From positions 32,001 through 96,000 of the IMG/VR virus record IMGVR_UViG_3300023184_000046: 64,000 bases of DNA; one strand, written 5' to 3'. The notes beneath the pieces are model-generated. The model was not told where the DNA came from, did not search any database, and saw only the letters and a program-made list of their open reading frames with translations. The position numbers were made by a program, and so were the translations under genes. The stretch is from a virus. Numbering within the stretch: position 1 is the first letter of the stretch; each line of letters opens with the position of its first letter. Shown here in pieces: positions 46,135 to 63,521 of the stretch.

Positions 46135-46168
46135 TAAGTACATCCGTGCAATACGAAACACTAGGCAC

Positions 46169-46204
46169 AAAAAAATACCCTACACCAAACTGGTGTAGGG
46201 TATT
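46169..46204 (-). terminator. Intrinsic terminator
   Basis: AATACCCTACACCA/TGGTGTAGGGTATT stem with T-run on minus strand. Confidence 0.85.
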
Positions 46205-46220
46205 AAGTTTATTACTTTGC

Positions 46221-46589
46221 TCATGTATGTCTCTCAAAGATTTCGCTTAACTCTTTAAGGAAGGTTGACCTTATGTTCTTGATAAACTCACTAAACTGTT
46301 CGGTAATATCCTGACTATTACCTTCATCATCAGGTATACCACAGAACAAAACATCACCTACAAGGTAGTCATTAAACTTAGTTAGCTTATTAGCACGATG
46401 CCAAACAGCCGTAGCAATTATATTATCACGCAAGCCTTTAAGCTTGCCTTCTTCATTAACAAACCCAGAACCAATATTGCCAGCTTCGATGGCTTCTATG
46501 TAGCCACCAACTGCTCTTTGAATTTCTTTCAGGCCTTCAGCCTGAACTTCAATGATTTCGCCAGAAGTCTTTACAATAACTGCCTTCAT
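46221..46589 (-). CDS. DUF3846-like protein
   Basis: LKEIQRAVGGYIE, VNEEGKLKGL..N..AT, DYLVGDVLF.G; start MKAVIVK with GGAG SD. Confidence 0.7.
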   Translation of the reverse strand: MKAVIVKTSGEIIEVQAEGLKEIQRAVGGYIEAIEAGNIGSGFVNEEGKLKGLRDNIIATAVWHRANKLTKFNDYLVGDVLFCGIPDDEGNSQDITEQFSEFIKNIRSTFLKELSEIFERHT

Positions 46590-46603
46590 GATTATCTCCA
46601 ACA

Positions 46604-46657
46604 TAGCTGGAATTGGTTGTTTATAAATGATTAAGTCACCAGCAATGACTAACATCA
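46604..46657 (-). ncRNA. Conserved 5'-leader hairpin/pseudoknot, copy 1
   Basis: AGTCA-TTGCTGG-TGACT hairpin; loop complementary to downstream CCAGC just before SD. Confidence 0.6.
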
Positions 46658-46687
46658 TCAGCAATGTTTATAACTTGCTTACTGTAC

Positions 46688-46716
46688 TATCGGTTTAAAA
46701 GCTGTGCCATTTTCAA
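46688..46716 (-). promoter_or_regulatory. TTGAAA-N17-CCGATA promoter, copy 1
   Basis: One of nine identically spaced copies upstream of minus-strand genes. Confidence 0.75.
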
Positions 46717-46745
46717 CTATTTAAAAAATATTTTATAAGATTGTT

Positions 46746-46934
46746 CTTAAGTACAACTGTGCAATAGGAAATCTTAAGTACAACTGTGCAATAGGAAATC
46801 TTAAGTACAACTGTGCAATAGGAAATCTTAAGTACAACTGTGCAATAGGAAATCTTAAGTACAACTGTGCAATGGGAAATCTTAAGTACATCTGTGCAAT
46901 AGGAAATCTTAAGTACATCTGTGCAATGGGAAAC
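46746..46934 (+). repeat. 7 x 27-bp tandem repeat CTTAAGTACA(A/T)CTGTGCAAT(A/G)GGAAAT
   Basis: Directly visible; contains the 18-bp core. Confidence 0.95.
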
Positions 46935-46943
46935 ACTAGGCAC

Positions 46944-46983
46944 AAAAAAATACCCTACACCATTTTGTTTGGTGTAGGGTATT
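46944..46983 (-). terminator. Intrinsic terminator
   Basis: Near-identical to 46169-46204. Confidence 0.85.
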
Positions 46984-47000
46984 AAGTTTACTTACATGGT

Positions 47001-47456
47001 TTACATGGCCTTGGATGATTCGATCTCGGCAAAGCTGGCCTGCACCTTTACAGTTTGCTTGCCTGATACCGATACCTTTGGTATCGTTTCGGCAAAGACT
47101 TCTTTGATTGTATCCATCTTTGCTTTCATTTTCTTTGACAGGATTACCAGCTTACCATCTTCTTTTTTCTCAAGCATTGCAGCCATGGCCTTCGCAGCCT
47201 TCTCGACTGCTTCATCACCATAGCTACCAAACTCGGCAGCAAATGCAGCAGCAAACTCATAGATGCTTACAGAGACAGTACCAGTCCTCTCGTAATCTTC
47301 GCCTTTATTGATTGAACCAGAAACATCAATGTTCTGGATATCACCAGAAATATTATCAAGGATTGTTATCGAGCAATCAATTTTATGATTACCCGTGTTA
47401 AGCTTTTCTTCTTTTTCTCCAAATACCTTCTGGACTGCGATAAAAATCTCATTCAT
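47001..47456 (-). CDS. Hypothetical protein, paralog of 62793-63248
   Basis: Shared KVFGE, NKGEDYER..TVSV..YEF, LSKK, VFAET.PK.SVSGK. Confidence 0.75.
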   Translation of the reverse strand: MNEIFIAVQKVFGEKEEKLNTGNHKIDCSITILDNISGDIQNIDVSGSINKGEDYERTGTVSVSIYEFAAAFAAEFGSYGDEAVEKAAKAMAAMLEKKEDGKLVILSKKMKAKMDTIKEVFAETIPKVSVSGKQTVKVQASFAEIESSKAM

Positions 47457-47472
47457 AGCACTATCTCCATCA

Positions 47473-47525
47473 TAGCTGGCATTGATTGTTTATAAGTGAT
47501 TGTCACCAGCAATAACGAATCACTT
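47473..47525 (-). ncRNA. Conserved 5'-leader hairpin/pseudoknot, copy 2
   Basis: AAGTGATT(C)GTTA-TTGCTGG-TGACAATCACTT...CCAGCTA..GGAG. Confidence 0.6.
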
Positions 47526-47541
47526 TGTTTGTCTAATGTAT

Positions 47542-47570
47542 TATCGGTTTAAAAGCTGTGCCATTTTCAT
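47542..47570 (-). promoter_or_regulatory. ATGAAA-N17-CCGATA promoter, copy 2
   Basis: Spacer identical to copy 1. Confidence 0.7.
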
Positions 47571-47600
47571 CTATTTAGAAAATATTTTATAATTTATGAT

Positions 47601-47852
47601 TCTTAAGTACATCTGTGCAATAGGAAATAAGTTTATGATAATAATTCTTAAGTACATCCGTCCAATGGGAAATAAGTTTATGGTTTATGATTCTTAAGTA
47701 CATCCGTCCAATGGGAAATAAGCTTATGGTTTATGATTCTTAAGTACATCTGTGCAATAGGAAATCTTACGGCAATGGTAAATCCTAAGTACATCTGTGC
47801 AATAGGAAATCTTACGGCAATGGTAAATCCTAAGTACATCTGTGCAATAGGG
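47601..47852 (+). repeat. 6 copies of the AAGTACATC(C/T)GT(G/C)CAAT motif, ~45-46 bp period
   Basis: Directly visible. Confidence 0.9.
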
Positions 47853-47949
47853 ATTGCATTACATTGTGTTTTAAAGCGTTTGTTCTTTACTTGACCTAAG
47901 ACTCATCTTAGCAAGAGATCGTTGAAAATAGACGCATTGTGTGGGTGCT

Positions 47950-48031
47950 GGTGATGATATGCGGGTGATGATATGCGGGTGATGATATGCGGGTGATGAT
48001 ATGCGGGTGATGATATGCTGGTGATGATATG
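47950..48031 (+). repeat. 6 x 14-bp GGTGATGATATGC(G/T) array
   Basis: Directly visible; abuts terminator. Confidence 0.9.
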
Positions 48032-48037
48032 GAAACG

Positions 48038-48076
48038 AAAAAATCCCCTACACCATTTTTAGTGGTGTAGGGGATT
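48038..48076 (-). terminator. Intrinsic terminator
   Basis: AATCCCCTACACCA/TGGTGTAGGGGATT stem plus T-run. Confidence 0.85.
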
Positions 48077-48084
48077 AGGTTTAT

Positions 48085-48282
48085 TTACTTGGCCAGCTTT
48101 TTTAATTCTACTGGGTCAAGGTGGTTCTTTTCAACATGATCGACCAGCTTAACTTTAATTTCCTTCAACTTCTCTTTGAGAACTTCGATTGTTTTCTCGA
48201 TTGCATCTTTTTTGGAATCTAATGCAATCCATTCAGCAACAGGAAAGCAATCACCAGCATAGTTATAATTTTCAGCTTCCAT
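48085..48282 (-). CDS. Small hypothetical protein
   Basis: Start MEAENY with GAGGA SD. Confidence 0.6.
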   Translation of the reverse strand: MEAENYNYAGDCFPVAEWIALDSKKDAIEKTIEVLKEKLKEIKVKLVDHVEKNHLDPVELKKLAK

Positions 48283-48296
48283 AACATTAATCCTCG

Positions 48297-48350
48297 TAGC
48301 TGGAAGTAAATGGTTGTAAATGATTGTCACCAGCAATAACGAATCATTTA
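48297..48350 (-). ncRNA. Conserved 5'-leader hairpin/pseudoknot, copy 3
   Basis: TAAATGATT(C)GTTA-TTGCTGG-TGACAATCATTTA...CCAGCTA-C-GAGGA. Confidence 0.6.
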
Positions 48351-48364
48351 TGTAGGTTTAATAA

Positions 48365-48397
48365 TCCCCTTGCACCATGTTAATTGGTGCAAGGGGA
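48365..48397 (-). terminator. Strong hairpin after vWA gene (terminator or processing site)
   Basis: TCCCCTTGCACCA/TGGTGCAAGGGGA 13-bp stem; weak U-tract. Confidence 0.6.
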
Positions 48398-48404
48398 GAT
48401 AAGT

Positions 48405-50252
48405 TTATTTAGTAACTAACTTTTTGATGGCCCTGCAAAGTAGTGGCAGGGATGACATCGTATCAGCAAGCGTAACCCAGTTACCTTGGCCGTAAAGCTT
48501 GTCGCCTATTCGATGATCGAAAGCATTAGCAATCCCGATTCCGAATACTCCAACTCCCGATTTTCTAGCTTCAACTACACATTTGTTTGTGTGATTTACT
48601 CCTAGACTTCCATCGTAACAGTTAGCACTTGGTTGACCATCTGAAATAACAAACAGATGATGAATCGAGTTAGCATTTGCTGGATTGGTTTCTATCATTT
48701 TTTGAGATATAAACCTCACGGCAAATCCATCTGCATTGTTTGCAATTCCATCTGCAACTGCCAAGTTTTTAGTGTTGTCGAAACCTTTCCCAAAATATGG
48801 GAACATTTGGACAACATTGGCAACTCCACCAGAATCAGCGGTATGACCATAAACAACTAAGTCTATGCCCCTAATGCCTTTTATGGCTTCGACAAGCTGC
48901 AAGCAAACTGTTCTTGCATCTGTAATGTTTCGGCCCATCATACTGCCTGACTGGTCAAGCAATAATCCAATGGTGTACTGTTTTCCTTTAGGCACTTCCT
49001 TTGTCTCAAATAGGCGAATCTTTTCACCCATTTGAAATTTATGAAGTCCATTAACATCGAGATCGCCAAGCGTTTTACCAAAGTCTGGCCTTGCAAGCTT
49101 TACCGATTTAAACGCAAAGCTATTTTTAATAGCTTCGATTGCTCTGCGATTTTTTATTAGAAAATCTCGGTAAGCATCTTTGGTTTTTGGCTTCATCCTA
49201 GCGTTTGTAACTTGATACTTGACCTTGGCTGGATCACCTTCCTTGGCTTCTGGTTCTTCGAGTTTTACTTCTTCTGGTTTTTCATCACCAGAGGAAAGCT
49301 TGTTTAACTCTGCAAGAACTGGTGAATGTTCTTCTGGTACTGGCGAATCTAAGAGTCTTTCAGCAGGTGTTTTAAATGGCGAACCATGGCCCTTGCACTT
49401 TTTATCTTTTCCTTCACCTTCACCATCGCCACCTTCAGCTTCTCCTTCACCATCTTCACCTTCACCACCTTCACCACCTTCACCATCGCCATCTTCACCT
49501 TCACCATCTTCTGGTGGTGCTGGTGGTGCTGGTGGTGCTGGTGGTTTTTCTTCTTCTTCCAATTCGATTATTTTGTCCTTAATCGTCTTGTAGATTCGTT
49601 CTGCGACTTCCAGTCTTTCATATCCCTCTGGACTATGATTGACTTTGAAATCCTCGGAAACATGGTCAAGAATCTCTTTAAATTCTTCCCAATGTTCTTG
49701 GATACCAGTATCACCAAAGTCTACTTCTGATTGTGGCAATGTCCACTTTTCCATGATTGCGTTTACTTTTTCTGTCATGCTAGTTTTCTGGTTCACTTGT
49801 TTTTCGCATGAAATAGATTCTTGAAAAGCTTCAACTTCTGGTGTGAAACCAGTCCACTTTTCTTTGACTTTATCAAAGCTATTTTTGGTCAAGATTCCGT
49901 TGAAAATACTAATGCCTGTTTTACTTACCATGTCACCAGTTTGACTGGTAAATCCTGTTACTGACATTTTCTCTTTGCTGGTCTTGCTTCTTAGCATTTC
50001 TTGCTTCGCAAGTATTCTACCCTTTTCTTCAAGCATGGCCTGTTCTACTTGTTCGACCTTTTTGCCATCAGCACTAATAAATTTACCAGCATCAATCACG
50101 ATACTGTTTGAAGCACTTGCACCAGTAGCTTGTGTGAACCGAACTTCAATATTCTTTTCTGATCCATCTGAACTGTTCTGGATTAAATTGGCGGTGTTTG
50201 CCAATTCCCTAAGAATATCCATGCCAACATCTTTGTTATTACTCATGTTCAA
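48405..50252 (-). CDS. vWA-domain protein (CobT/NorD-like MoxR partner), copy 1
   Basis: MIDAS LLDQSGSM, YGHT, NNADG, VISDGQP; acidic Gly/Glu linker. Confidence 0.85.
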   Translation of the reverse strand: MNMSNNKDVGMDILRELANTANLIQNSSDGSEKNIEVRFTQATGASASNSIVIDAGKFISADGKKVEQVEQAMLEEKGRILAKQEMLRSKTSKEKMSVTGFTSQTGDMVSKTGISIFNGILTKNSFDKVKEKWTGFTPEVEAFQESISCEKQVNQKTSMTEKVNAIMEKWTLPQSEVDFGDTGIQEHWEEFKEILDHVSEDFKVNHSPEGYERLEVAERIYKTIKDKIIELEEEEKPPAPPAPPAPPEDGEGEDGDGEGGEGGEGEDGEGEAEGGDGEGEGKDKKCKGHGSPFKTPAERLLDSPVPEEHSPVLAELNKLSSGDEKPEEVKLEEPEAKEGDPAKVKYQVTNARMKPKTKDAYRDFLIKNRRAIEAIKNSFAFKSVKLARPDFGKTLGDLDVNGLHKFQMGEKIRLFETKEVPKGKQYTIGLLLDQSGSMMGRNITDARTVCLQLVEAIKGIRGIDLVVYGHTADSGGVANVVQMFPYFGKGFDNTKNLAVADGIANNADGFAVRFISQKMIETNPANANSIHHLFVISDGQPSANCYDGSLGVNHTNKCVVEARKSGVGVFGIGIANAFDHRIGDKLYGQGNWVTLADTMSSLPLLCRAIKKLVTK

Positions 50253-50365
50253 TCATCCTTTAAAAAACTACAAAAACAAAAAGCTTGCAAAACATTTGCA
50301 AGCTTGATTACCACAATCAAATTTAACCCCCCTAATTCTTTGATTAGAGGGGTTTAAAAGGTTTA

Positions 50366-51610
50366 CTAGGCTAATCCCGCACCCTTCAACAACTCCCGAA
50401 TTTTAGCCCTTTCGGATTCCTTAGAACCATCATCTGTAAAATGGTTCACGATAGAAAATTCCAAACTGCTATTCCCGATTACTGCAAGCTTGGAAGCTGC
50501 GTTTTCCAGCAATCTGGTACTTAAGCTTTTGGTGTAAACTTCGCAAGCTTTATGTTTTGCACGAACTGTTCGGGCAATCATTGCAAGCTTATCTGACCTT
50601 GCAGCATCTAGGCCATGCTTACGCTGCAATAGCAAGCTTTCATCCTTTTCATCGAGATAATCGACTTCGATTATATCGGAGAACCGATCACTAATTGCAC
50701 CATCCATTTGATCTGTTCCCGTGAATTGCGATCCTTCATTCATCGTAGCAAAGAATGTAACTCCCGCTGCAACTGTGATAAACTCGCCAGTATCATCGAG
50801 AAAAGTTTGCCCCCTTGAATCTGCCATGGGAAGAAAAGTATTCATTGCCATTGGACTAAGGCGGTTGATTTCATCCAAGATGACTACCATCCTTGGCACT
50901 CTAATAGCGTTTACAAATTGGGAATAAATCCATCGTATTCCCTTGTCATCCGCTGTTTTGAAACCAAACAAATCTTTGGCTTCACGCAAGGTAGGGCAAT
51001 CAATTATTACTGCTGGTCTTTTTGCCTTGGCAGCAAATTGTAAGGCCAGCATTGTTTTCCCGCATCCAGCAGGGCCGACCAAACGAATCTTTGCACTAGG
51101 TTTACCCGCTGCGAAATCCCTGCGAGATAACTTTTCAATCCCATTCAAATATTCCTTCAACTTTGGGTTGAAGGTAAAGTGGGGATCAATTGTTGGTATT
51201 GGAACTGGTGCAACTACTGGTGCAACCTTGGGAACAACTGGTGCTGGTGCTGGTTTAACTGCAACTGGTGCTGATTCCAATTCAGCATCTTTTGGCACTT
51301 CATAACCATCATCTAGGCCATCATCGTATTCACTCATACTCTCAATATCCTCCATAAAGTTTTCTTCTTCAACTGGTGCAACTGGAACAACAACTACTGG
51401 TTTAACTGGTGCTACTGGTGTTTCACCAGCTTTAACTGCTTCCTTATACTGATGTCTTACTGCTGACCACTCAGCCTTTGTGATTTCGATACAAGCATCT
51501 TGGCAAGTCTTATGACAAGCTTCAAAGCTTGCCAAACCCTTTGAGTTTACCATTACTTCCCTAAGTAATTTGTACTTTTCGCTTCTTGCTTCACGGCTGA
51601 AAAAACTCAT
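50366..51610 (-). CDS. MoxR/CbbQ/NirQ-type AAA+ ATPase, copy 1
   Basis: Walker A GPAGCGKT, Walker B ILDEINR, ATMN, DRF, STRLL; start MSFFSRE with AGGAG SD. Confidence 0.9.
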   Translation of the reverse strand: MSFFSREARSEKYKLLREVMVNSKGLASFEACHKTCQDACIEITKAEWSAVRHQYKEAVKAGETPVAPVKPVVVVPVAPVEEENFMEDIESMSEYDDGLDDGYEVPKDAELESAPVAVKPAPAPVVPKVAPVVAPVPIPTIDPHFTFNPKLKEYLNGIEKLSRRDFAAGKPSAKIRLVGPAGCGKTMLALQFAAKAKRPAVIIDCPTLREAKDLFGFKTADDKGIRWIYSQFVNAIRVPRMVVILDEINRLSPMAMNTFLPMADSRGQTFLDDTGEFITVAAGVTFFATMNEGSQFTGTDQMDGAISDRFSDIIEVDYLDEKDESLLLQRKHGLDAARSDKLAMIARTVRAKHKACEVYTKSLSTRLLENAASKLAVIGNSSLEFSIVNHFTDDGSKESERAKIRELLKGAGLA

Positions 51611-51689
51611 AATCAAACTCCTAAATTTAAAAAAAACAACAAAAAACCACATGGCAACAAAACCCTGTGGTGTGATAAGCTTATTGGTA

Positions 51690-51718
51690 TATCGGTTTGA
51701 AACTCGATCCATTTTCAA
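51690..51718 (-). promoter_or_regulatory. TTGAAA-N17-CCGATA promoter, copy 3
   Basis: Upstream of MoxR copy 1. Confidence 0.75.
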
Positions 51719-51742
51719 CTATTTTTTTTTATTTTGAAAATA

Positions 51743-51973
51743 TTAATTTTCATCATCATCTTCACAATTAAAAGGCAGTTTACCAAGGTATAACTTATAC
51801 CCTGCCTTTAATAATGTTTCTTTCACTTCCTCATTAGTTCCGAATATGTGTGCCTTATTATTGTTTTTATCAAAATACACGGCTTCAACGATATCATCCG
51901 TGAAAAACATTGGCAATCCTAGTGCTTTAACATCGAAACCCATTACATCTGGCATCAAATCAAATGTTTCCAT
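51743..51973 (-). CDS. Small hypothetical protein
   Basis: 76-aa ORF with AAGGT SD, own promoter. Confidence 0.6.
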   Translation of the reverse strand: METFDLMPDVMGFDVKALGLPMFFTDDIVEAVYFDKNNNKAHIFGTNEEVKETLLKAGYKLYLGKLPFNCEDDDEN

Positions 51974-52020
51974 GACATAACCTTTCAGTTAAATAAAGGG
52001 GCAACAAATTACTATTGTTG

Positions 52021-52049
52021 TATCGGTTTAAATTTTGATCCATTTTCAA
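52021..52049 (-). promoter_or_regulatory. TTGAAA-N17-CCGATA promoter, copy 4
   Basis: Same spacing. Confidence 0.75.
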
Positions 52050-52108
52050 CTATTTTTTTTTATTTTAAAAGTATTTTAAGATTACAAAGTTTATAACCTT
52101 ACATTTCT

Positions 52109-52720
52109 TATTGTACGGATGTACTTTAGGATAAGCTTATTTCCTATTGTGCGGATGTACTTTAGGATAAGCTTATTTCCTATTGTGCGGATGTACTTGC
52201 AGGCGGATGTAATTATAAAAAAATAAGTTTACAAGTACATCCGTATAATAAGTTTATAAGTACATCCGTGCAATAAGTTTATAAGTACATCCGTGCAATA
52301 AGTTATTAAGTTGAATTGTTTTAAGTACATCCGTGCAATAAGGAAAAGCTTATTTTGTTTTATTTCGTATTGCACGGATGTACTTAATAAAGTTTAAGGT
52401 CACAAATTGTGACCTTAAGTACATCCGTCCAATGGGAAATAAGTTTATAGTTTATAATTCTTAAGTACATCCGTGCAATGGGACACAATTCTGGGACATA
52501 AATTATTTTGTAAGTACATCTGTGCAATAGGAAATAAGTTTATAGTTTATGATTCTTAAGTACATCCGTGCAATCGGAAATCTTAAGTACATCTGTGCAA
52601 TAGGAAATAAGTTTATGGTTTATGATTCTTAAGTACATCCGTGCAATGTGAAATAAGTTTATATTTATAATTCTTAAGTACATCCGTGCAATGTGAAATA
52701 AGTTTATGATAATAAGTTTA
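52109..52720. repeat. ~14 copies of AAGTACATCCGTGCAATA-like motif in both orientations
   Basis: Reverse copies ~52109, 52145, 52181, 52368; forward ~52233-52340 and ~52417-52695. Confidence 0.9.
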
Positions 52721-52899
52721 TAAACTTGGTAAACTTTATTAATAAGTTTAATTAAATTGATTTTAATGTTTAGTAATTAAGTAATCTTTATTATTAGTTT
52801 GAATTAAAAGATCGCATTAGATTGCGTTTTAAAGAACTTTGTTTATTGGTTGAGTCTTTAGTCGTCTTTAGTATAGATCGTTAATTTTAAGCTTATCCT

Positions 52900-53342
52900 G
52901 TTACGCCTTAACCTGCTGGGCGTTAACCTGCTGTGCCTGCTACGCCTTAACCTGCTGGGCGTTGAACCTACCTGAACCTGCTGTGCCTTAACCTGCTGGC
53001 TGGGCGTTGAACCTGCTGGGCGTTGAACCTGCTGTGCCTGCTACGCCTTAACCTGCTACGCCTTAACCTGCTGGGCGTTGAACCTGCTGGCGTTGAACCT
53101 GCTGTGCCTGCTACGCCTTAACCTGCTGGCGTTGAACCTGCTGTGCCTGCTACGCCTTAACCTGCTACGCCTTAACCTGCTGGGCGTTGAACCTGCTGTG
53201 TCTGCTACGCCTTAACCTGCTACGCCTTAACCTGCTACGCCTTAACCTGCTGGGCGTTGAACCTGCTGGCGTTGAACCTGCCTGAACCTGCTACGCCTGA
53301 ACCTGCTGGCGTTGAACCTACCTGAACCTGCTATGCCTGAAC
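52900..53342 (+). repeat. GC-rich mosaic repeat of AACCTGCT + (GGGCGTTG | ACGCCTT | GTGCCTGCT)
   Basis: Directly visible; no long ORF. Confidence 0.9.
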
Positions 53343-53376
53343 ACTACTAAAAAGAGACAATGATTGTATTAAATAG

Positions 53377-53458
53377 TGCTGATATGGAATTGCTGATATG
53401 TGATGCTGATATGGAAGATGCTGATATGCGGTTGATGATATGCAAGATGCTGATATGT
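53377..53458 (+). repeat. 6 x TG(C/A)TGATATG array
   Basis: Copies at ~53377, 53391, 53404, 53419, 53433, 53448. Confidence 0.85.
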
Positions 53459-53463
53459 AAACG

Positions 53464-53501
53464 AAAAAATACCCCATACCATTTTATTGGCATGGGGTAT
53501 T
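53464..53501 (-). terminator. Intrinsic terminator
   Basis: AATACCCCATACCA/TGGCATGGGGTATT stem plus T-run. Confidence 0.8.
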
Positions 53502-53511
53502 AAGTTTAAAA

Positions 53512-55314
53512 TCAAGATGTAATTAGTTTTTTGATCTCTCGGCAAAGCAAAGGTAAAGAACTAATTGTATCCTTTAGGATTACATAATTTCCCGAACCGT
53601 AAAGAGAAGTGCCAACGGAATTGTCAAAGGCGTTTTGAATGCCAATTCCAAAAACATTAATCTTTCTTTCGGTAGACTGTTTCACGCATTTAGCCGTGTG
53701 TCTAATACCATTGTTTCCCGCATAGCAGATTGCTGCTGGTTGACCATCTGAGATGACAAACAGGTGGTGTACGCTGTTTGCATTTGCAGGATTGGTTTCC
53801 AACATTCTCTCTGATATAAATCGGACAGCAAATCCATCTGCATTGTTTGACAATGCTTGTGCATTTGCTAGTCCAATGGTATTATCAGCACCCTTCTGAT
53901 AATAAGGAATCATCTCTAGTGTGTTACCTTCGCCACGATCTGCGGAGTGTCCATAAACTACTAGGTCGATTCCTTTTATGCTTTTTATAGCTTCCACTAA
54001 AGCAAGGCAAACTGTAGAAGCATCTTTTATCTTACTTCCACACATACTGCCTGATTGGTCTAGTAAAATTCCAATGGTATATTTCTTACCCTTGGGGATT
54101 TCCTTTTCTTCAAACAGGCGAATCTTTTCACCCATATGAAATTTGTGTAAACCGTTGATATCAAGATCACCGACTGTCTTGCCAAAATTTGGTCTAGACA
54201 AGTGAACCGATTTAAAAGCAAACGATTGTTTTATAGCTTCAATCATTCTGCGATTGGTAATCATAAAACTACGATAAGTTTCCTTGTCTCTATTTGTTGG
54301 TTTAAACTTATGAACCCTTACTTTTATTTTTGCAGGGTCATAAGCTTCAGCGGATGAGGGAATATCTTTTGGAGTATCGTTGTTTGCCTTTAGATCCTGA
54401 AAACCTTGTGGGCTTGCAGAATTATCAGGTCGTTCAATAATTCTATCTCCAATGTTTTTAGAATCTCTTAAAGGCTTTTTACCTTCAGGATTTTCACCTT
54501 CACCTTCACCTTCACCTTCACCTTCACCTTCACCTTCACCTTCACCTTCACCTTCACCTTCACCTTCAGGTGCTTCAGGCGTTTCATCTTCACCTTCTGG
54601 CGTTTCAGGTGTTTCAGGCGTTTCATCTTCTACTTCTGTAATCCTAGAAGCGATTTCATCGTAGATTCTTTTTGAGATTTTTAACCTCTCGTTTTTTGCC
54701 GTTGGCTTTTTAAATTCTTCAGCTACATGATCGAGAATCTTTTCAAAATCTTCAAAGTGTTCGCCAAGGCCAGTATCACCAAAATCAATGTTAGAATTTG
54801 GTAGTGTCCATTTTTCGATTATGGATTCTACCTTTTCTTCCATTCTAGATTCTTTGGTAACTGAAATATCCTGACCAATAGAATCTTTAAAAGATTCAAT
54901 CTCAGGTGCAAAGCCTGACCATTTTTCTTTAACACTATCAATTGCATTTTTAGCAGATACACCATTAAAGATTGTTTTTATCTCAGGTGTAGCTAACTCA
55001 GTAGATTCTTCTGAAAATCCACTAAGCGTCATTCGTTCATGTTGCGTAGTGGTTTTGAGTAATTCTTGTCTAGTCAAGATTCTACCCTTTTCCTCAGATA
55101 AAGCTTTATCATTAAGAACCAAGCTTCCATCTTCTGCTGTAAACTTAGATAGATCAGCAACTAAATCTGTACGATCTGTTGTAGATTTAAATCCAACCGA
55201 CAAGGTTTTCTCTTTATCACCCTCGCAACCATTTGATAAAAGGTTTGCGGTTTTGGTCAATTCTGCCAAAATTTCTTGTCCGATTACGATGCTTTCTTTA
55301 GTCTTAGTATTCAT
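53512..55314 (-). CDS. vWA-domain protein (CobT/NorD-like), copy 2
   Basis: LLDQSGSM, YGHS, NNADG, VISDGQP; (EG)n linker; start MNTKTK with GAGG SD. Confidence 0.85.
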   Translation of the reverse strand: MNTKTKESIVIGQEILAELTKTANLLSNGCEGDKEKTLSVGFKSTTDRTDLVADLSKFTAEDGSLVLNDKALSEEKGRILTRQELLKTTTQHERMTLSGFSEESTELATPEIKTIFNGVSAKNAIDSVKEKWSGFAPEIESFKDSIGQDISVTKESRMEEKVESIIEKWTLPNSNIDFGDTGLGEHFEDFEKILDHVAEEFKKPTAKNERLKISKRIYDEIASRITEVEDETPETPETPEGEDETPEAPEGEGEGEGEGEGEGEGEGEGEGEGENPEGKKPLRDSKNIGDRIIERPDNSASPQGFQDLKANNDTPKDIPSSAEAYDPAKIKVRVHKFKPTNRDKETYRSFMITNRRMIEAIKQSFAFKSVHLSRPNFGKTVGDLDINGLHKFHMGEKIRLFEEKEIPKGKKYTIGILLDQSGSMCGSKIKDASTVCLALVEAIKSIKGIDLVVYGHSADRGEGNTLEMIPYYQKGADNTIGLANAQALSNNADGFAVRFISERMLETNPANANSVHHLFVISDGQPAAICYAGNNGIRHTAKCVKQSTERKINVFGIGIQNAFDNSVGTSLYGSGNYVILKDTISSLPLLCREIKKLITS

Positions 55315-55378
55315 ATTATCCTCATTTGAAAAAAGTAAAAAGGTAAAGCCCCACCACATTGGCAGGGCTTTGAAACAA

Positions 55379-56569
55379 CTACTCTGAAAGTCCTGAACCC
55401 TTAAGCAATTCCCGAATTTTTGATCTTTCCGAATCTTTGCTACCATCGTCAACAAAATGGCTAACAAGAGAATACTCAAGAGAACAAGCACCAATTTTAG
55501 CAAGCTTTTTAGCTGCGTTTTCCAGCAATCTGGTGCTTATGCTTTTAGTATAAACTTCACTAGCCATAAATTTAGCCCTGACCGTTTTTGCAACCAATGC
55601 AAGCTTATCCGATCTAATTTTATCAAGACCATGTTTTCTTTGCAGGAGCAAACTTTCATCAGGTTCTGATAAATAATTGATAGGAATCAAATCACAAAAT
55701 CTATCGCATAAAGCGGAGTCCATTTGATCCGTTCCAGTAAACTGCGATCCTTCATTGCAGGTACTGAAAATCGTCACGCCTGCTGCAACCTTTATTTCCT
55801 CTTTGCTTTCGTCAAGATATGTTTCACCCCTAGAATCTAGCAAAGGCAATAAAGTATTCATGGTCATAGGGGATAATCTGTTTATTTCATCCATTACGAT
55901 TACCATGCGGGGTATTCGTATTGCATTGACGAATAAACTATTAACCCATTTAAGACCATCTTTATCTACTGTTTTATTACCGAATAAACTTAGCCCTTCT
56001 CTAAGTGTCATGCAGTCGATTATGACACATGGGCGTTTGGTTTTAGCTGCAAACTGAATTGCCATGCTGGTTTTACCACAACCTTGATGGCCAACCAACC
56101 TGATAGCTGCACTAGGTTTGCCTGCTGCAAAGTCATCTCTCGACATTTGTTCAATGCCATTGAGATAATTTTTAAGATTGGTATCAAAGGTAAAATGAGG
56201 GTCAATCTGGTGCATAAATTTAGCTTTAACCCACTCAGGGTATTCTGCTTTTTTAGGTGCAGGTGCAGGAACAAATTCTTCCATTTCAGGTTCATCCATA
56301 GGTTCAGGTTCTTCCATTACAGGAGCAGGAGCAGGTTCTTCCATTACAGGTATTGGTGCAGGTGCAGGTATTGGTGTTTCACCTGCTGCGATAGCATTTT
56401 TATACTGGTGTTTGATAGCACTCCAGTCTGCCTTAGATACTACAATGCCAACTGCTGCCAATGATTTATGGCAATGTTCAAAAGATGCTTCACCTTTAGT
56501 ATTAACGAATATTTCCCTAAGTAAACGATACTTAGTAGTCCTAGCTTCTCTGCTGAAAAAATTACTCAT
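55379..56569 (-). CDS. MoxR/CbbQ/NirQ-type AAA+ ATPase, copy 2
   Basis: GHQGCGKT, VMDEINR, STCN, DRF, STRLL; start MSNFFSRE. Confidence 0.9.
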   Translation of the reverse strand: MSNFFSREARTTKYRLLREIFVNTKGEASFEHCHKSLAAVGIVVSKADWSAIKHQYKNAIAAGETPIPAPAPIPVMEEPAPAPVMEEPEPMDEPEMEEFVPAPAPKKAEYPEWVKAKFMHQIDPHFTFDTNLKNYLNGIEQMSRDDFAAGKPSAAIRLVGHQGCGKTSMAIQFAAKTKRPCVIIDCMTLREGLSLFGNKTVDKDGLKWVNSLFVNAIRIPRMVIVMDEINRLSPMTMNTLLPLLDSRGETYLDESKEEIKVAAGVTIFSTCNEGSQFTGTDQMDSALCDRFCDLIPINYLSEPDESLLLQRKHGLDKIRSDKLALVAKTVRAKFMASEVYTKSISTRLLENAAKKLAKIGACSLEYSLVSHFVDDGSKDSERSKIRELLKGSGLSE

Positions 56570-56600
56570 CGTTTCTAATCCTTCTAAGACATGAGACATG

Positions 56601-56711
56601 ACTATCAATTAATCTGCCGTTTCTAATCGGCATGAAAACTAACTGATATTAAAATCTATACTATCAATTAATCTGTCATTTGCAATCGGCATGAAAACTA
56701 ATTGATATTAA
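56601..56711. repeat. Tandem pair of ~52-bp hairpin-forming repeats in MoxR2 leader
   Basis: ACTATCAATTAATCTG....CGGCATGAAAACTAA(C/T)TGATATTAA at 56601 and 56660. Confidence 0.8.
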
Positions 56712-56713
56712 CC

Positions 56714-56742
56714 TATCGGTTTGAAACCTCACCCATTTTCAA
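56714..56742 (-). promoter_or_regulatory. TTGAAA-N17-CCGATA promoter, copy 5
   Basis: Upstream of MoxR copy 2. Confidence 0.75.
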
Positions 56743-56799
56743 CTATTTTTTTTTATTTTGAAAATATTTTAACATTACAAAGTTTATAAACTTACATTT

Positions 56800-57090
56800 C
56801 CTATTGCACGGATGTACTTGATAATCATAAACTATAAGTTTATTTCCTATTGCACGGATGTACTTGATAATCATAAACCATAAGTTTATTTCCTATTGTG
56901 CGGATGTACTTAAAATTTCCCGTTGTCCCATTGCCCGTTGTCCCATTGCACGGATGTACTTAATATTTAAATAAATAAATTCAGTTAAAGTTATAAGTAC
57001 ATCCGTGCAGTAAATTTATAAGTACATCCGTGCAATAAAATTATAAGTACATCCGTGCAATAAGTTTATAAACTTATAAGTTTATAAGTT
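56800..57090. repeat. 7 copies of the 18-bp motif (4 reverse then 3 forward) plus TAAGTTTA/TAAACTTA palindromes
   Basis: Directly visible. Confidence 0.9.
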
Positions 57091-57144
57091 TATATTTTAT
57101 AAACTTATAATGTTTTTTCAGGCGGAGATTTGAACTTATAAAAA

Positions 57145-57684: not shown

Positions 57685-58151
57685 TTACTTTTTGTTTTAC
57701 TACTTATTATTCGTTGGCATTTAAAAAGATTTCACAAAATTATTTTAATTTATTAGGTAGTATAACCATTTTCTTGATTCCACGAAAATGGTCGATGTCG
57801 GTAAAACATTTTGGCGTACAGGAGTTGATTGATATTATCATAATCTTATAAGATTATTTTATTAGGAATTCCAGGTCGCACTGGAGCTACCGTTAGACTG
57901 GAGGAGCATAGCAGGAGCAGGATCAGGGACTCGTGGCGTATTGGGACTCGTGCGTCAGAAGTTAAATTATAAACTTATAAGTTTATAAGTTTATAAGTTT
58001 ATTTTAATGGTTTAACTGGTGCTACAGGTTCAACTGGAGCTACAGGTGAGACTGGACATACTGGAGACAGGTTAGACAGGTGAGACTGGTGCAACTGGTA
58101 CTACTGGAGCTACGGGACAAACAGGATCAGATAATTTTATAAGATTATGCC

Positions 58152-58253
58152 TGCTGATATGCGGTGATGATATGTGGTGATGATATGTAGCTGCTGATAT
58201 GGAAGGTGCTGATATGGAAGGTTTTTTAATTTTTAAAAGGTTTAATGATATGG
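58152..58253 (+). repeat. 5-6 x TG(C/A)TGATATG array
   Basis: Copies at ~58152, 58165, 58178, 58192, 58207 and partial ~58246. Confidence 0.85.
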
Positions 58254-58287
58254 AAAAAGCTCACTTGTATAAACAAGCGAGCTTTTT
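58254..58287 (-). terminator. Intrinsic terminator (possibly bidirectional)
   Basis: AAAAAGCTCACTTGT/ACAAGCGAGCTTTTT. Confidence 0.8.
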
Positions 58288-58304
58288 GATTAGTGTAAGA
58301 TATG

Positions 58305-58580
58305 TTATTCAAACATTTTTATAATTTCTGGTTGAGAATCAATTAACTTTCCTTCTTTATCTGCAAGGACAAGGTATGAGTAGGCAATGCTTGATCTTTT
58401 CACAAGGCAATCGCCATCAATCACAACATAAACATTAACTCTGTAATGATTACCAAAGACATTAATTGCTTTGGCCTTCATAAAGTTAGGCGGTGTGCCT
58501 AACTGTTTCATTACTGCTACTTCTACTCTTTCACAGACATCTGTTTTCACAGACACAGGCATTTCAGTTGTTGTTGACAT
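58305..58580 (-). CDS. Hypothetical protein
   Basis: GGAGG SD; LGTPPN...HYRVNVY...SYLV.AD.EG. Confidence 0.7.
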   Translation of the reverse strand: MSTTTEMPVSVKTDVCERVEVAVMKQLGTPPNFMKAKAINVFGNHYRVNVYVVIDGDCLVKRSSIAYSYLVLADKEGKLIDSQPEIIKMFE

Positions 58581-58637
58581 TCTACTATCCTCCTTTGAAA
58601 AGGTTCTAACATTATTTATCCTTCACACCTATTACTA

Positions 58638-58666
58638 TATCGGTAAAAATTATAACAAAGTTTCAA
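58638..58666 (-). promoter_or_regulatory. TTGAAA-N17-CCGATA promoter, copy 6
   Basis: Same spacing, different spacer sequence. Confidence 0.75.
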
Positions 58667-58671
58667 CTTTT

Positions 58672-60135: not shown

Positions 60136-60146
60136 TGTAATATCCT

Positions 60147-60530
60147 TTAGAATTTAAAAAAGAAAGGTTTATCTGGTGGTTGTTTGTGATAGTCTAAAAG
60201 AATAGTTAGACATTCACCAGTAGCAAGTTCTATTGCTTTTTTACATTCTATACCTTTGAAGTTATCAGTTAAGTATCTTACTATATCTGTTTGGTTATTT
60301 TTAACCGCTTCCTTCAAAGCTGGTTCTAGTTGTTTTGCATCAAAGCTACCAACTTCGACTAATGATTTTAATATAAACAATCTTCCGTAGTGTGCTGCAA
60401 ACTTTATACAATTGGTAAAATTATTTGCACCAAAGTCTAATGATTCTTCTACTTTGTTTATATTATCTTCTAATACAGCGTTGAACATTTGTTCATTAAG
60501 TTGTTTAATTGTAATGCGTTCTTCGTCCAT
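60147..60530 (-). CDS. Ankyrin-repeat-like protein
   Basis: FAAHYGRLFILKSLVE.G, ALKEAVKNNQTDIVRYL; ends FFKF. Confidence 0.7.
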   Translation of the reverse strand: MDEERITIKQLNEQMFNAVLEDNINKVEESLDFGANNFTNCIKFAAHYGRLFILKSLVEVGSFDAKQLEPALKEAVKNNQTDIVRYLTDNFKGIECKKAIELATGECLTILLDYHKQPPDKPFFFKF

Positions 60531-60534
60531 GTGA

Positions 60535-61137
60535 TTAACCTTTAATCAAGGTACTGAGGTAGTGCATCAATAAAAGACCGCCAATGTTTCTGCCAGCTTC
60601 GCATATTTGGTGTTCGTGATTATCTTCCCAAGTAAACTTATTTTTTTCTTCATCATAGACGGAGTTATTGTAAATCCAATCAAACAATTCATTATTAAGT
60701 TTGCAGAAGATTATTACTTCTGGTTCTTGTGATAGAGGAACATATTTAGCGGGATTTCTTTTATCAAGTGGGTGTTTGCCATCAATCATTATAAAGAGTA
60801 ATTCATCTTCTTTATCTTCTTGTGGTGTTGGGTCATAAATTTCACCTGTTGGAGATTTATAGATAATATGTGGTTCAAAGTTTAAATAAAGTTCTTTTGC
60901 CCCTAGCCAGCAAATATAACCATGAATGGCTTCTCCCCCATGTTTTTCAATTATCTTTGCTATATTTCTATTTGATGATAGCATTTCGCAATCTTCTTGT
61001 GGTTTTAAAGTAACCACAATTGGAGTGCCTATTTTAGCCAATTCATCTTTATATTTTTCTTGGAATATTTTCTTAGTTGGAATCACACCATTTTCGTGTG
61101 AAATTTCAAATAAGTTATCTGCCATGCTATTAATCAT
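60535..61137 (-). CDS. Transglutaminase/papain-like fold protein (possibly inactive)
   Basis: HGYICW...FEPHIIYKSPTGEIYDPTP. Confidence 0.45.
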   Translation of the reverse strand: MINSMADNLFEISHENGVIPTKKIFQEKYKDELAKIGTPIVVTLKPQEDCEMLSSNRNIAKIIEKHGGEAIHGYICWLGAKELYLNFEPHIIYKSPTGEIYDPTPQEDKEDELLFIMIDGKHPLDKRNPAKYVPLSQEPEVIIFCKLNNELFDWIYNNSVYDEEKNKFTWEDNHEHQICEAGRNIGGLLLMHYLSTLIKG

Positions 61138-61157
61138 GTTTTGTTCTCCTGTTATTA

Positions 61158-61186
61158 GATCGGTAATTAAGTTGGCAAAATTCCAA
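61158..61186 (-). promoter_or_regulatory. TTGGAA-N17-CCGATC promoter variant, copy 7
   Basis: Same spacing, upstream of 60535-61137. Confidence 0.6.
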
Positions 61187-61192
61187 CTATTT

Positions 61193-61609
61193 TCAAAATT
61201 CTATATCAAATCCAGATGCTGTAAGACAGAAGGTATAGAAAACTCCTAGAAGAATAGCGTTTAGTATTTCAATTTTTACACTTGGGTTTTGAATACTATC
61301 TTCAAATTCTTCTTTGATTTCATCATCTATTTTAAATAACATTTCTTCTTCCATTTCTTCAAACAAGCAATTCAGATCATTTGAAGTTTTCAGTCGTTCA
61401 CATAAATCAAAGTAATTATCTAATATTTCTTTGAATTGTTTATTATATTTACTGGAAACTAAAACATCTTCATTGCCAGTAATTTGATAAGTTAATTTTC
61501 TTATTAATGCTTTAATCTTATCAGATTCCATGTCATTAATATTAATTAACGGCCTAATGTTATCATCATAGGCTTTTCTAATTTGATTTAATAGTGCTTG
61601 TTCTTCCAT
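61193..61609 (-). CDS. Hypothetical acidic protein
   Basis: 138-aa ORF. Confidence 0.6.
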   Translation of the reverse strand: MEEQALLNQIRKAYDDNIRPLININDMESDKIKALIRKLTYQITGNEDVLVSSKYNKQFKEILDNYFDLCERLKTSNDLNCLFEEMEEEMLFKIDDEIKEEFEDSIQNPSVKIEILNAILLGVFYTFCLTASGFDIEF

Positions 61610-61651
61610 GACTTATAATATCATGGAAGAAGGCACGAAATCAAGAGGGTA

Positions 61652-62242
61652 TTAACTGTTAATTTTTGTAATTACCTCAACGATTTTATCTACAGTTTGT
61701 TTAACTGCTTTTTCATTTACATTTTCTTTATTGGAAGTTAACCAGCTTATAAGAAAGCCTGTTATTTTTGTTCTTAATCCATCAACATCTTTATCGTTAC
61801 GATACTCTTTTATAGCATTTTCAACTTCACCACTATCACCAAAATCAACTTCATTAGTTGGTTCTTCAAGTTCATATTTCTCAATGCAATATTGGAATAT
61901 TTTCTTTGAGAAATGGTCAATCATAAACTTAACTTTTAAATTATTATATTTTTCACTATTAATCTTATAGTTTTCTTTTACATTATCAGAAATATCTTTA
62001 TCAGAAGTAACTTCTATGAGATTTTCAAAATATTGCATTAAATCTGTAACTTGGTCTTTTCTTGTACTTACACCTTTTACAATTAAATCTTCATCTCCGA
62101 AATTACGATAAAGACACATATCAACATTTCTTGCTAGGTTTGAAATGTTTTCAAAGCTTGTATCTTGTTGGTTAGCAACCCTTTTAATAAAAGGTTCAAT
62201 TGTACTCTGTAAGCATTTCTTGAAATCACTTGCACTAATCAT
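61652..62242 (-). CDS. Hypothetical protein
   Basis: AAGGA SD; EKYELEEPTNEVDFGDSG resembles EKWTLP.S.VDFGDTG of the vWA N-domains. Confidence 0.65.
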   Translation of the reverse strand: MISASDFKKCLQSTIEPFIKRVANQQDTSFENISNLARNVDMCLYRNFGDEDLIVKGVSTRKDQVTDLMQYFENLIEVTSDKDISDNVKENYKINSEKYNNLKVKFMIDHFSKKIFQYCIEKYELEEPTNEVDFGDSGEVENAIKEYRNDKDVDGLRTKITGFLISWLTSNKENVNEKAVKQTVDKIVEVITKINS

Positions 62243-62285
62243 GGTATCATCCTTTATGTAAAAAACTTATTAGCCACACACTTAC

Positions 62286-62314
62286 TATCGGAATTTAAAC
62301 AACCAAAATTTCAA
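62286..62314 (-). promoter_or_regulatory. TTGAAA-N17-CCGATA promoter, copy 8
   Basis: Same spacing. Confidence 0.75.
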
Positions 62315-62793
62315 CTTTTACACATTAATTTTTCTAAAGTTTTTGCAACTTCATCTTTTATTTGTTCAATTGAAAGATCATCTACTTTTATATTGTATAA
62401 AACTGCCATGTGTACAACATTAAGCCATTCTTGATTAATAGGTGTAAAATACTTATTTTTAGATATAATGTTAGTGAGTACATCTACTTTTTCGTATATC
62501 TTATAGCACATTATTTGTGGCATAGAAGATAAAGTTATATCATAGTGAACATCATTTTCATCTACTACCCAAGCATGAGTTATTGGAAGTCCTATACTGG
62601 TAACTACTATTCCTTCTGCATATCGTAGTTTATGCAGGTTCTGCATTACAATTCTTTGGGAATTTGCAAAGCATTGTTTAGCTTGTGGTCTAAAATTAGC
62701 AGCTTTAATAGATTCTTTAATGTGTTTTGGATGGTGTTTGTAAGGAACAGGACACCACCCATTCTTCATTAACTTATTAAAAACATCGTTCAT
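62311..62793 (-). CDS. Transglutaminase/papain-like (Cys-His-Asp) protein
   Basis: KQCFANS, YAEG, PITHAWVVD, YDIT. Confidence 0.6.
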   Translation of the reverse strand: MNDVFNKLMKNGWCPVPYKHHPKHIKESIKAANFRPQAKQCFANSQRIVMQNLHKLRYAEGIVVTSIGLPITHAWVVDENDVHYDITLSSMPQIMCYKIYEKVDVLTNIISKNKYFTPINQEWLNVVHMAVLYNIKVDDLSIEQIKDEVAKTLEKLMCKS

Positions 62794-63248
62794 TACATTG
62801 CTTCCTTATCCTGAGAAAACATTGATCTAACTTTTACAGTTGTTTTGCCAGATACAGATGTTTTTGGCAATGTTTCTGCAAACACATCTTTGATATCATC
62901 AACTTTATCTTTAATTTTCTTAGAAAGTGTTGTTGCTTTGCCATCAAGTTTTTTAGCAACCACTTTACCCATAGCTAACGCAGCTTTTTCAATAGCTACT
63001 GCATCAGAGATGCCAAGTTCGGTTGAATATTGTGCAATAAATTCGTAAAGGGCAACTGAAACAGTTGCAAGTCTTTCGTAATCTTCGCCTTTATTGACAG
63101 TTCCCTTAATATCTGCATTAACAATTGCATCATTTTTGTTGTCCACTACTGTGATAGTAAGGTCAACATCATGGCTGCCAGTAGCCAATTTAGTGATTTG
63201 TTCTCCAAAAACCTTTTCGATTGCTGCACAGGCTACTTCATTTAACAT
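62793..63248 (-). CDS. Hypothetical protein, paralog of 47001-47456
   Basis: Colinear 151-aa similarity. Confidence 0.75.
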   Translation of the reverse strand: MLNEVACAAIEKVFGEQITKLATGSHDVDLTITVVDNKNDAIVNADIKGTVNKGEDYERLATVSVALYEFIAQYSTELGISDAVAIEKAALAMGKVVAKKLDGKATTLSKKIKDKVDDIKDVFAETLPKTSVSGKTTVKVRSMFSQDKEAM

Positions 63249-63292
63249 GATATACTTCCTTTATGTTGTATTACTTAGTTTCCCTATCATAC

Positions 63293-63321
63293 TATCGGAA
63301 AGTTATTCGTTTGAATTTCAA
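63293..63321 (-). promoter_or_regulatory. TTGAAA-N17-CCGATA promoter, copy 9
   Basis: Same spacing. Confidence 0.75.
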
Positions 63322-63428
63322 CTATCTTGCAAAAAATCTTAAATTTTTTAAAAGTATTTTGAAAATCATATAAGTTTATATTTGTCCGCAGGTTAACTAA
63401 ACGCCTACAGGCAGGCAAGTAAATTTAT

Positions 63429-63521
63429 AAGTACATCCGTGCAGTAAAGTTATAAGTACATCCGTACAATAAAGTTATAAGTACATCCGTGTAATAAGTT
63501 TATAAGTACATCCGTGCAAAA
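63429..63521 (+). repeat. 4 x 25-bp repeat with AAGTACATCCGT core
   Basis: Copies at ~63429, 63454, 63479, 63504. Confidence 0.9.

Follow-up and report, generated by a model that had tools for sequence, protein, structure and literature searches.

The DNA considered here (the window, 64,000 nt) corresponds to bases 32001-96000 of a linear IMG/VR virus contig of 120,029 bp (G000), which by CheckV estimate represents about 24% of its genome. Our subject is a family of tandem arrays in this window, each with 4-15 copies of an asymmetric 18-bp motif (AAGTACATCCGTGCAATA, hereafter motif A), together with the promoters, terminators and small genes among which the arrays lie. The G+C content is 23-31% across most of the window and 34-40% at 46-58 kb. 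A gp25-like baseplate protein was found by Pfam, tRNA genes lie nearby, many of the open reading frames (ORFs) lack any family, and we read G000 as most likely a fragment of the genome of a huge uncultivated tailed phage. No close DNA relative of the contig was found among deposited phages, and a literature search for comparable features in phages brought up no paper.

With up to three mismatches allowed, motif A has 40 matches in the window against 0.04 expected (the mean of 100 shuffles, in which the largest value was 1). Since relaxing the threshold to four mismatches over the whole contig adds no copy (there are still exactly 40), the family is sharply edged. The repeated, iteron-like motif described in the first-pass annotation, which had been made from the letters alone, is therefore real; its tally of about 39 copies, about 14 of them in the array at 52.1 kb, is corrected to 40 and 15, and its array starts, right as to place, were 1-4 bp off by the inclusion of flanking bases. 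All the copies fall within positions 46136-63521 (G000 78136-95521), that is in 17.4 kb of the 120-kb contig, in a layout of 1 + 7 + 6 + 15 + 7 + 4 with 32 forward and 8 reverse copies.

The single copy (46136-46153, plus strand) adjoins the terminator of a cassette with a DUF3846 protein gene. Array I (46749-46928, plus strand) consists of seven forward copies with a period of 27 bp, and array II (47605-47849, plus strand) of six forward copies with a period of 45-46 bp. Array III (52109-52693, both strands) spans 585 bp and orders its 15 copies as three reverse (36 bp), four forward (25/40 bp), one reverse (at 52368) and seven forward (27/45-49 bp), while array IV (56802-57062, both strands) has four reverse copies (46-50 bp) and then three forward ones (25 bp). 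Array V (63429-63521, plus strand) sits in a divergent intergenic region and has four forward copies with a period of 25 bp. The divergent arrangement already noticed at 52.1 and 56.8 kb, with reverse copies before forward ones, is thus correct, the isolated reverse copy of array III coming in addition.

A seventh locus came from an exact 17-mer scan of IMG/VR, which yielded one further contig, G001 (101 kb), with a single array of five copies. A metagenomic stretch (L029) connects the right end of G000 (95.3% identity) with the inverted right end of G001 (97.1%) and, because it bridges both ends, the two contigs are neighbors in one kind of genome. The seventh array lies about 6 kb past the end of G000. 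It occupies a gap between convergent genes, after a terminator and a tRNA-Leu gene (9674-9757 of L029). Other tRNA genes of the phage, for Asn, Met and Thr, were seen at 99.5-101.1 kb of G000 (locus L018, 3507-5119). As for the count over the genome that had been proposed as a way to see whether the motif is confined to this region, within G000 every copy is in the 17.4-kb interval, and that contig is only part of the genome, with one more array shortly beyond its end.

The copies vary in a structured way. Eleven positions are invariant in 40/40 copies, among them AAGTACA (positions 1-7), C9, G11 and A15, and positions 10, 13, 14 and 18 are variable, mainly by transitions. The two conserved blocks are centered about 11.5 bp apart, roughly one helical turn, a spacing that would fit two major-groove contacts on one face of the DNA. 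The same core is embedded in several spacers: with AGTTTAT it makes the 25-bp unit, with GGAAATCTT the 27-bp unit, and longer spacers give the periods of 36 and 45-46 bp. A core that stays the same while its spacers and its orientation change has the look of a protein recognition site rather than of plain slippage. CRISPR arrays have repeats of about 23-50 bp and unique spacers of similar length, whereas the spacers of motif A are 7-28 bp long and recur within and between arrays, some units abutting with a 7-bp spacer only; non-palindromic and with recurring spacers, the motif is not CRISPR, as had been stated from the first.

A second recurrent element is the promoter-like pattern TTGAAA-N17-CCGATA, with seven exact matches in the window as against 0.00 in 100 shuffles. 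Along the contig this class has 13 sites (11 exact and two with one mismatch, G000 78.7-112.9 kb), all of them on the minus strand and all with CCGATA as the -10, unlike TATAAT. ATAG precedes nine of them, and a purine-rich Shine-Dalgarno-like stretch and a start codon follow each site within some 30-130 nt (the flanks were read by eye). CCGATA equals the core of the sigma-28 (FliA/SigD) consensus, in which a -10 of GCCGATAA is preceded by a -35 TAAA 15 nt upstream. The likeness to sigma-28 or extracytoplasmic function (ECF) type promoters lies in this -10 core; in contrast, the -35 here reads TAGTTGAAA, with its GAAA 16 nt upstream instead of TAAA at 15 nt, and CCGATA is preceded by A or T rather than by G. 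A search for Sigma70_r2 across the 221 kb of G000 and G001 came back empty; these two contigs amount to about half of the genome and are the scope of all the domain negatives given below.

Five of these promoters are associated with arrays, all on the minus strand: P46716 (46688-46716) before the DUF3846 gene, P47570 (47542-47570, ATGAAA-N17-CCGATA with one mismatch) before the gene of a 151-aa protein, P52049 (52021-52049) before a 76-aa gene and an AAA/VWA operon, P56742 (56714-56742) before a second AAA/VWA operon, and P63321 (63293-63321) before a second 151-aa paralog. Arrays I to V begin 33, 35, 60, 60 and 108 bp upstream of the respective -35, and an A/T-rich tract separates each multi-copy array from its -35. 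The array-bearing promoters are those that come first after a terminator-like hairpin, and there is no array at the promoters inside gene strings, namely the minus-strand sites at 51690-51718 (internal to a unit, before the MoxR-AAA gene), 58638-58666 and 62286-62314, and five more beyond the window. The earlier statement that every array lies just upstream of a TTGAAA/CCGATA promoter holds for 5/5 multi-copy arrays of the window and fails for the single copy at 46136 and for the seventh array, giving five of six loci in G000 and five of seven with the extra array of the relatives. Motif A and the promoter class extend together from 78 kb of G000, across the junction, to 94-98 kb of G001.

The genes that neighbor the arrays code for the DUF3846 protein, the 151-aa protein, MoxR-AAA and VWA proteins and an SprT-like protein. 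The DUF3846 gene (46221-46664, minus strand) forms a cassette closed by an intrinsic-terminator-like hairpin (AATACCCTACACC..., 46174-46204, minus strand), and a near-identical hairpin (46949-46983, minus strand) closes the cassette of the 151-aa protein (47001-47456, minus strand). The product of the latter gene is 54% identical to that of 62793-63248 (minus strand), the first gene behind array V and P63321. Two paralogous operons follow the same plan, both on the minus strand. The pair at 48405-51718 combines a MoxR-type AAA gene (50366-51718) and a VWA/CobT-like gene (48405-50252) and ends in a terminator-like hairpin at 48042-48076, and the pair at 53512-56608 has its MoxR-AAA gene at 55379-56608, its VWA gene at 53512-55503 and its hairpin at 53468-53501 (both hairpins on the minus strand). 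Promoter and upstream region are common to both operons, and the DUF3846 and 151-aa units are nearly alike, letter for letter, in promoter, leader and terminator. At the single copy 46136 the junction between terminator and motif is the same as at the last copy of array I, and for this reason it looks like a leftover of cassette duplication.

A further short repeat, motif B or TG(A/C)TGATATG, has 17 copies against 0.34 expected, all on the plus strand and spaced 13-15 bp. They form three arrays, each adjoining a terminator-like hairpin of a minus-strand unit: six copies with a period of 14 at 47952-48031 (next to the hairpin 48042-48076), six at 53377-53457 (next to 53468-53501) and five at 58152-58216, beside a hairpin and T-run at about 58258-58290 that was read by eye and is absent from the list of the hairpin scan.

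A scan of metagenomes for motif A returned 67 stretches, 55 of them with single matches, which were treated as chance, and 12 with at least three exact copies, which were the ones examined. Eight of the 12 match parts of the region with 82-95% identity over the longest aligned pieces (short flanks reach 98%), and all eight keep the arrays, which persist in relatives of 82-94% identity. Array III has 15, 15, 14 and 13 copies in G000, L062, L030 and L020, and its order (three reverse, four forward, one reverse, then forward) is kept in the last three, the differences being insertions and deletions of whole units; array IV has 7, 7, 7, 6 and 5 copies in G000, L062, L037, L050 and L020. Gene content differs among close relatives. 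Two of them, L031 and L057, have unrelated small genes at the position of the DUF3846 gene, within flanks that are 92-98% identical to G000. The free-standing NUMOD4/HNH_3 endonuclease gene seen at 45154-45825 (minus strand) is missing from the same two, with flanks of 93-98% identity, and looks like a recent insertion of a homing endonuclease. Another stretch, L061 (2.4 kb), carries eight copies of motif A and two promoters and has no other DNA in common with G000; it may belong to a distant relative or to a part of this very genome not seen so far.

A degenerate form of the motif gave 37 stretches in viral contigs, only one of them (L009) with several copies. The promoter pattern preceded by TAG gave 42 there, each with a single match, and L009 alone among them belongs to a contig in which the motif is present too. 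No relative was found in a protein-based search with the AAA protein. The 17-mer showed no array in 185,579 species genomes, where its 19 single chance matches are scattered over unrelated taxa and give no clue to the host; the site is therefore specific to this phage lineage. As for expression, metatranscriptomes were examined over 48040-52230: one lake run gave four contigs (151-270 nt, depth 2-4) on or between the 83-aa, VWA and AAA genes, which are uninformative on arrays or promoters, and three other runs gave no matching contigs.

The gaps between units contain other repetitive elements. Long non-coding tandem repeats, which vary in length between relatives, were seen at 46030-46134 ((TCCCAG)x17.5), at 52897-53347 (G+C-rich units of 15-109 bp over 450 bp) and at 58009-58113 (18-bp units that would read Gly-X-Y). 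Between motif-A arrays and other repeats sits a non-coding element of about 85 nt (GCATTA.ATTG.GTTTTAAAG...AGATCGTT) at 47850-47930 and 52806-52890; the likeness of the two copies was seen by eye, and L062, L020 and L030 preserve the one at 52.8 kb well. The leader behind P56742 (56610-56712, minus strand) has two units of about 60 nt with an inverted repeat (ATCAATTA...TAATTGAT, also by eye), and L061 has three hairpin and T-run elements in the leader between one of its promoters and the gene, so that attenuation or antitermination control in these leaders is possible. Perfect or near-perfect tandem repeats occur within coding regions as well (26741-27600, 35785-35904, 49411-49545 and 54493-54625), including a 27-30-bp unit repeated 24 times and TTCACC repeated 12.7 times in a VWA gene; this genome seems generally rich in tandem repeats. 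Elsewhere in the contig, at G000 4955-5962 on the minus strand (L016), there is a gene for an actin-like protein of 336 aa (Pfam Volactin, E 1e-61, above the curated cut-off), which is unusual for a phage.

The reading we favor, and to which we give about an even chance, is that motif A provides upstream control sites for one predicted DNA-binding regulator, carried on shufflable cassettes with a phage-specific class of promoters. The motif would be the recognition site of a single sequence-specific DNA-binding protein, most likely of a huge tailed phage, and the arrays would be control regions, each with the intrinsic terminator of the preceding unit on one side and, on the other, the A/T-rich region and promoter of the unit that follows. 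They would serve a block of some 49 kb of small accessory genes, transcribed leftward from promoters of the phage-specific (TAG)TTGAAA-N17-CCGATA class, which is not of the sigma-70 type. With its 4-15 sites occupied, an array may act on the first promoter of its unit, either activating it or repressing it cooperatively, and so set how strongly or when it fires. Leader and terminator, together with array and promoter, behave as one regulatory cassette that is duplicated and exchanges its genes; the similarity of the cassettes and the replaced genes of L031 and L057 are seen in the sequences themselves.

That a protein binds motif A, and that it acts on transcription in one direction or the other, we infer from the letters of the DNA. 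The shape of the site, its eleven invariant positions, its occurrence in both orientations and its presence at seven loci agree with the earlier proposal of binding sites for one protein. Of the three roles that had then been offered for it (initiator, partition protein or activator), a promoter-linked one is favored by the position of the arrays at 5/7 loci, and the other two found no support. A familiar arrangement of this kind is that of rrnB P1, where Fis sites lie upstream of the UP element. The order of several protein sites, an A/T-rich tract and a -35 is alike; if transcription starts about 7 nt after CCGATA, the proximal motif-A site would be centered at about -78 to -105. Unlike rrnB P1, there are here up to 15 sites over 585 bp, in both orientations and with no fixed helical phase.

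Several observations weigh against this interpretation. No promoter adjoins two of the seven loci, which are the lone copy at 46136 and the convergent-gap array of L029/G001, and eight of the 13 promoter-like sites have no array and equally good hexamers, so that arrays are not needed for promoter recognition. For the same reason, hexamers as good as those of array-less promoters, it cannot be read from the sequence whether the arrays activate, repress or insulate. The proximal sites stand at differing distances from their promoters and in both orientations, with no common helical phase. Nor are the five pairs of array and promoter independent events, because four modules share a duplicated promoter and upstream region and the fifth drives the paralog of the second's gene. 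Conservation, too, sets the cores apart from the spacers only slightly: among relatives, cores and spacers are 95 vs 91%, 91 vs 84% and 96 vs 95% identical, and in two of three comparisons the cores are not better conserved than the flanks, the relatives being too close to show selection on the cores.

The last point on that side is that the matches listed by Pfam in the ORFs of G000 and G001 include no DNA-binding candidate for the regulator. The screens covered 150 ORFs of G000 (25 of 65 families listed), 115 of G001 (25 of 92) and 51 further ones (all 22 families listed); among the listed matches the only domains of DNA-binding type are AP2 and HNH-type nuclease domains and a treble-clef zinc-finger family, with no transcription-factor family. 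Pfam gave no DNA-binding family for the genes adjoining the arrays and left of the region, and PHROGs gave no family for ten large ORFs. The 151-aa protein, considered as a candidate autoregulator, was followed further. It had no usable atlas match, a word-index search gave close homologs only, and a model from nine sequences was poor (pLDDT 35). A profile search then recovered 31 distant homologs, and the model from 32 sequences reached pLDDT 80 and pTM 0.45. With this model Foldseek found nothing in the PDB at E <= 0.001, the best match in BFVD (E 0.014) was an uncharacterized phage protein and the best Z of VIA-align was 4.0. A sequence profile against the PDB retrieved only designed helical repeats, at E 0.001 or weaker, and Pfam and PHROGs gave nothing useful for the 32 members. 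The family thus has a fair predicted model that resembles no recognizable fold, and there is no evidence either way on DNA binding.

Other proteins drew attention by position or repeat structure. Two small CxxC...CxxC proteins (63651-63866 and from 63867 onward, plus strand) are transcribed away from array V, with a sigma-70-like TTGACA promoter read by eye; they had no family match and, from their position, could be regulators. Two adjacent proteins made of repeats of about 28 aa (..YSYxYAxxVLxAPFPLGExAIA..) are encoded at G000 118706-119870 (minus strand, L019), and a protein of this kind recurs at G001 100173-100667, among the few genes common to the ends of the two contigs. The HTH_35 matches inside the first two are weak and repeated, and we did not find them convincing as DNA binders.

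A wider version of the regulator reading, which we put forward tentatively and think rather unlikely, extends it to the whole accessory block of about 50 kb. This would be organized in insulated, shufflable expression units by a composite boundary module, with the order intrinsic terminator, motif-B array, hypervariable tandem repeats, motif-A array, A/T tract and promoter of the alternative type. One or two dedicated DNA-binding proteins of the phage would read both motifs and switch the block on or off as a whole, the units would be kept from interfering with each other, and the repeated modules would drive a rapid exchange of cassettes between strains. Several genes of the block carry domains known from anti-restriction regions.

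The alternative that survives best is an improbable one, namely that no dedicated protein exists and the arrays are tandem repeats born by slippage on a duplicating promoter-terminator cassette of the PeSL type, where they would mainly provide homology for the shuffling of accessory genes. The same gaps do contain (TCCCAG)x17.5, a 14-bp unit repeated six times and the 15-109-bp units; promoter, upstream A/T region, leader and terminator are near-identical across cassettes; in L031 and L057 the DUF3846 cassette is replaced by different genes and the HNH gene is missing; and the conservation of the cores is barely above that of the spacers. In T4-type phages, as described in PMC2839356, PeSL cassettes are promoter and stem-loop modules that flank small accessory genes, which are replaced between close relatives, and they mediate shuffling of this sort. 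Repeated promoter and terminator modules, an A/T-rich upstream region and gene replacement are what the present cassettes share with them. On the other hand, PeSL promoters follow the sigma-70 consensus and have no arrays of an extra motif, whereas the modules here have CCGATA as -10, motif-A arrays, sometimes motif-B arrays, and long hypervariable repeats. Plain slippage would moreover copy unit and spacer together in a single orientation, while the 18-mer keeps its 11 invariant positions in at least four spacer contexts, in both orientations and at seven loci, and every relative examined retains arrays. Recombination repeats and regulator sites are not mutually exclusive.

Less probable again is that a partition or DNA-positioning system uses the arrays as its centromere-like sites, which may double as operators in the manner of KorB or of the omega protein of plasmid pSM19035. 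Some plasmid centromeres have a length like the 585 bp of array III, and the contig encodes the actin-like protein described above. PMC9499535 describes six parS sites in pSM19035, each of 7-10 heptads, that overlap promoter regions and have a native mixed orientation, all read by one protein, omega, a ParB of the ribbon-helix-helix type. Short non-palindromic repeats in direct and inverted orientation at the promoters of different genes are common to both cases, and by analogy we regard omega as the nearest formal parallel for mixed-orientation arrays at several promoters. Here, in contrast, the unit is of 18 bp with spacers of 7-28 bp instead of contiguous 7-bp heptads, the arrays stay clear of the promoter, on the upstream side of its -35, and the element is a huge phage. 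The array of a partition centromere is bound by a protein whose gene lies next to it along with that of a ParA, ParM or TubZ motor. Here the ParB_N domain was not found, no ribbon-helix-helix protein or ParA was identified (ParA-type ATPases and TubZ were not specifically searched), the genes adjoining arrays have no match to a partition family, and the actin-like gene, the only cytoskeletal one seen, is some 73 kb away from the closest array and belongs to a compact gene string free of repeats.

We consider it still less likely that bound arrays, possibly together with the motif-B arrays, are boundary roadblocks that stop transcription or replication forks from running from one unit into the next. 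Every array does lie downstream of the strong terminator-like hairpin of the preceding unit, the excess of motif B is confined to three arrays that each adjoin such a hairpin, and the proposal would cover the two promoter-less loci, both right behind terminators. Roadblocks such as Tus-Ter act in a polar fashion, though, and both orientations are present here; the hairpins already look strong as terminators, and we know of no precedent for arrays of up to 15 sites in this role.

Lower in probability we place a role in replication, with the arrays as the iterons of a single origin or of several, or as sites for copy control by titration of an initiator. The iterons of theta plasmids and of P1 (incC/incA) are asymmetric tandem repeats of 17-22 bp with extra clusters elsewhere, and the motif resembles them, in particular the origin and control iterons of P1, in its 18 bp, asymmetry, tandem arrangement, several clusters and two orientations; in addition, one 100-bp window of at least 86% A+T (at 52700) adjoins array III. 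Unlike those iterons, the arrays have irregular periods of 25-46 bp instead of a regular spacing of about 22 bp and stand at seven loci, each before unrelated genes, which is not the layout of an origin. Rep3_N, the only initiator domain searched, was not found in the half of the genome covered, and the array-adjacent genes match no initiator family. DnaA boxes are not enriched (five near-matches in 20 kb, none in or beside an array), and the cumulative GC skew has no turn in the region and tracks gene orientation. Finally, it is very improbable that the arrays work as RNA, be it CRISPR-like, a mimic of repeats or a sponge that takes up an RNA-binding protein such as CsrA: weak sigma-70-like hexamers face into two arrays and the reverse complement of the consensus resembles the CsrA SELEX site around GGAUGU, but such hexamers are no commoner than in shuffles (61 vs 72.5), nothing in Rfam reached the gathering scores (the weak rows listed at E up to 1 were far below them), the short spacers recur, and the CsrA idea was rejected as GGA is not conserved, position 10 being T in 13/40 copies and position 8 A in 5/40.

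Regulation in huge uncultivated phages is almost unknown, and here the sequence by itself reveals a class of promoters and an 18-bp site. Should the arrays turn out to be strong control elements that are portable, they would have a use as parts; should they be no more than scars of recombination, the region would still document PeSL-like shuffling outside the T4 group. The two cis-elements may serve as handles to find the regulator, to define a temporal class of genes and to explain how accessory cassettes are exchanged between strains of these phages.

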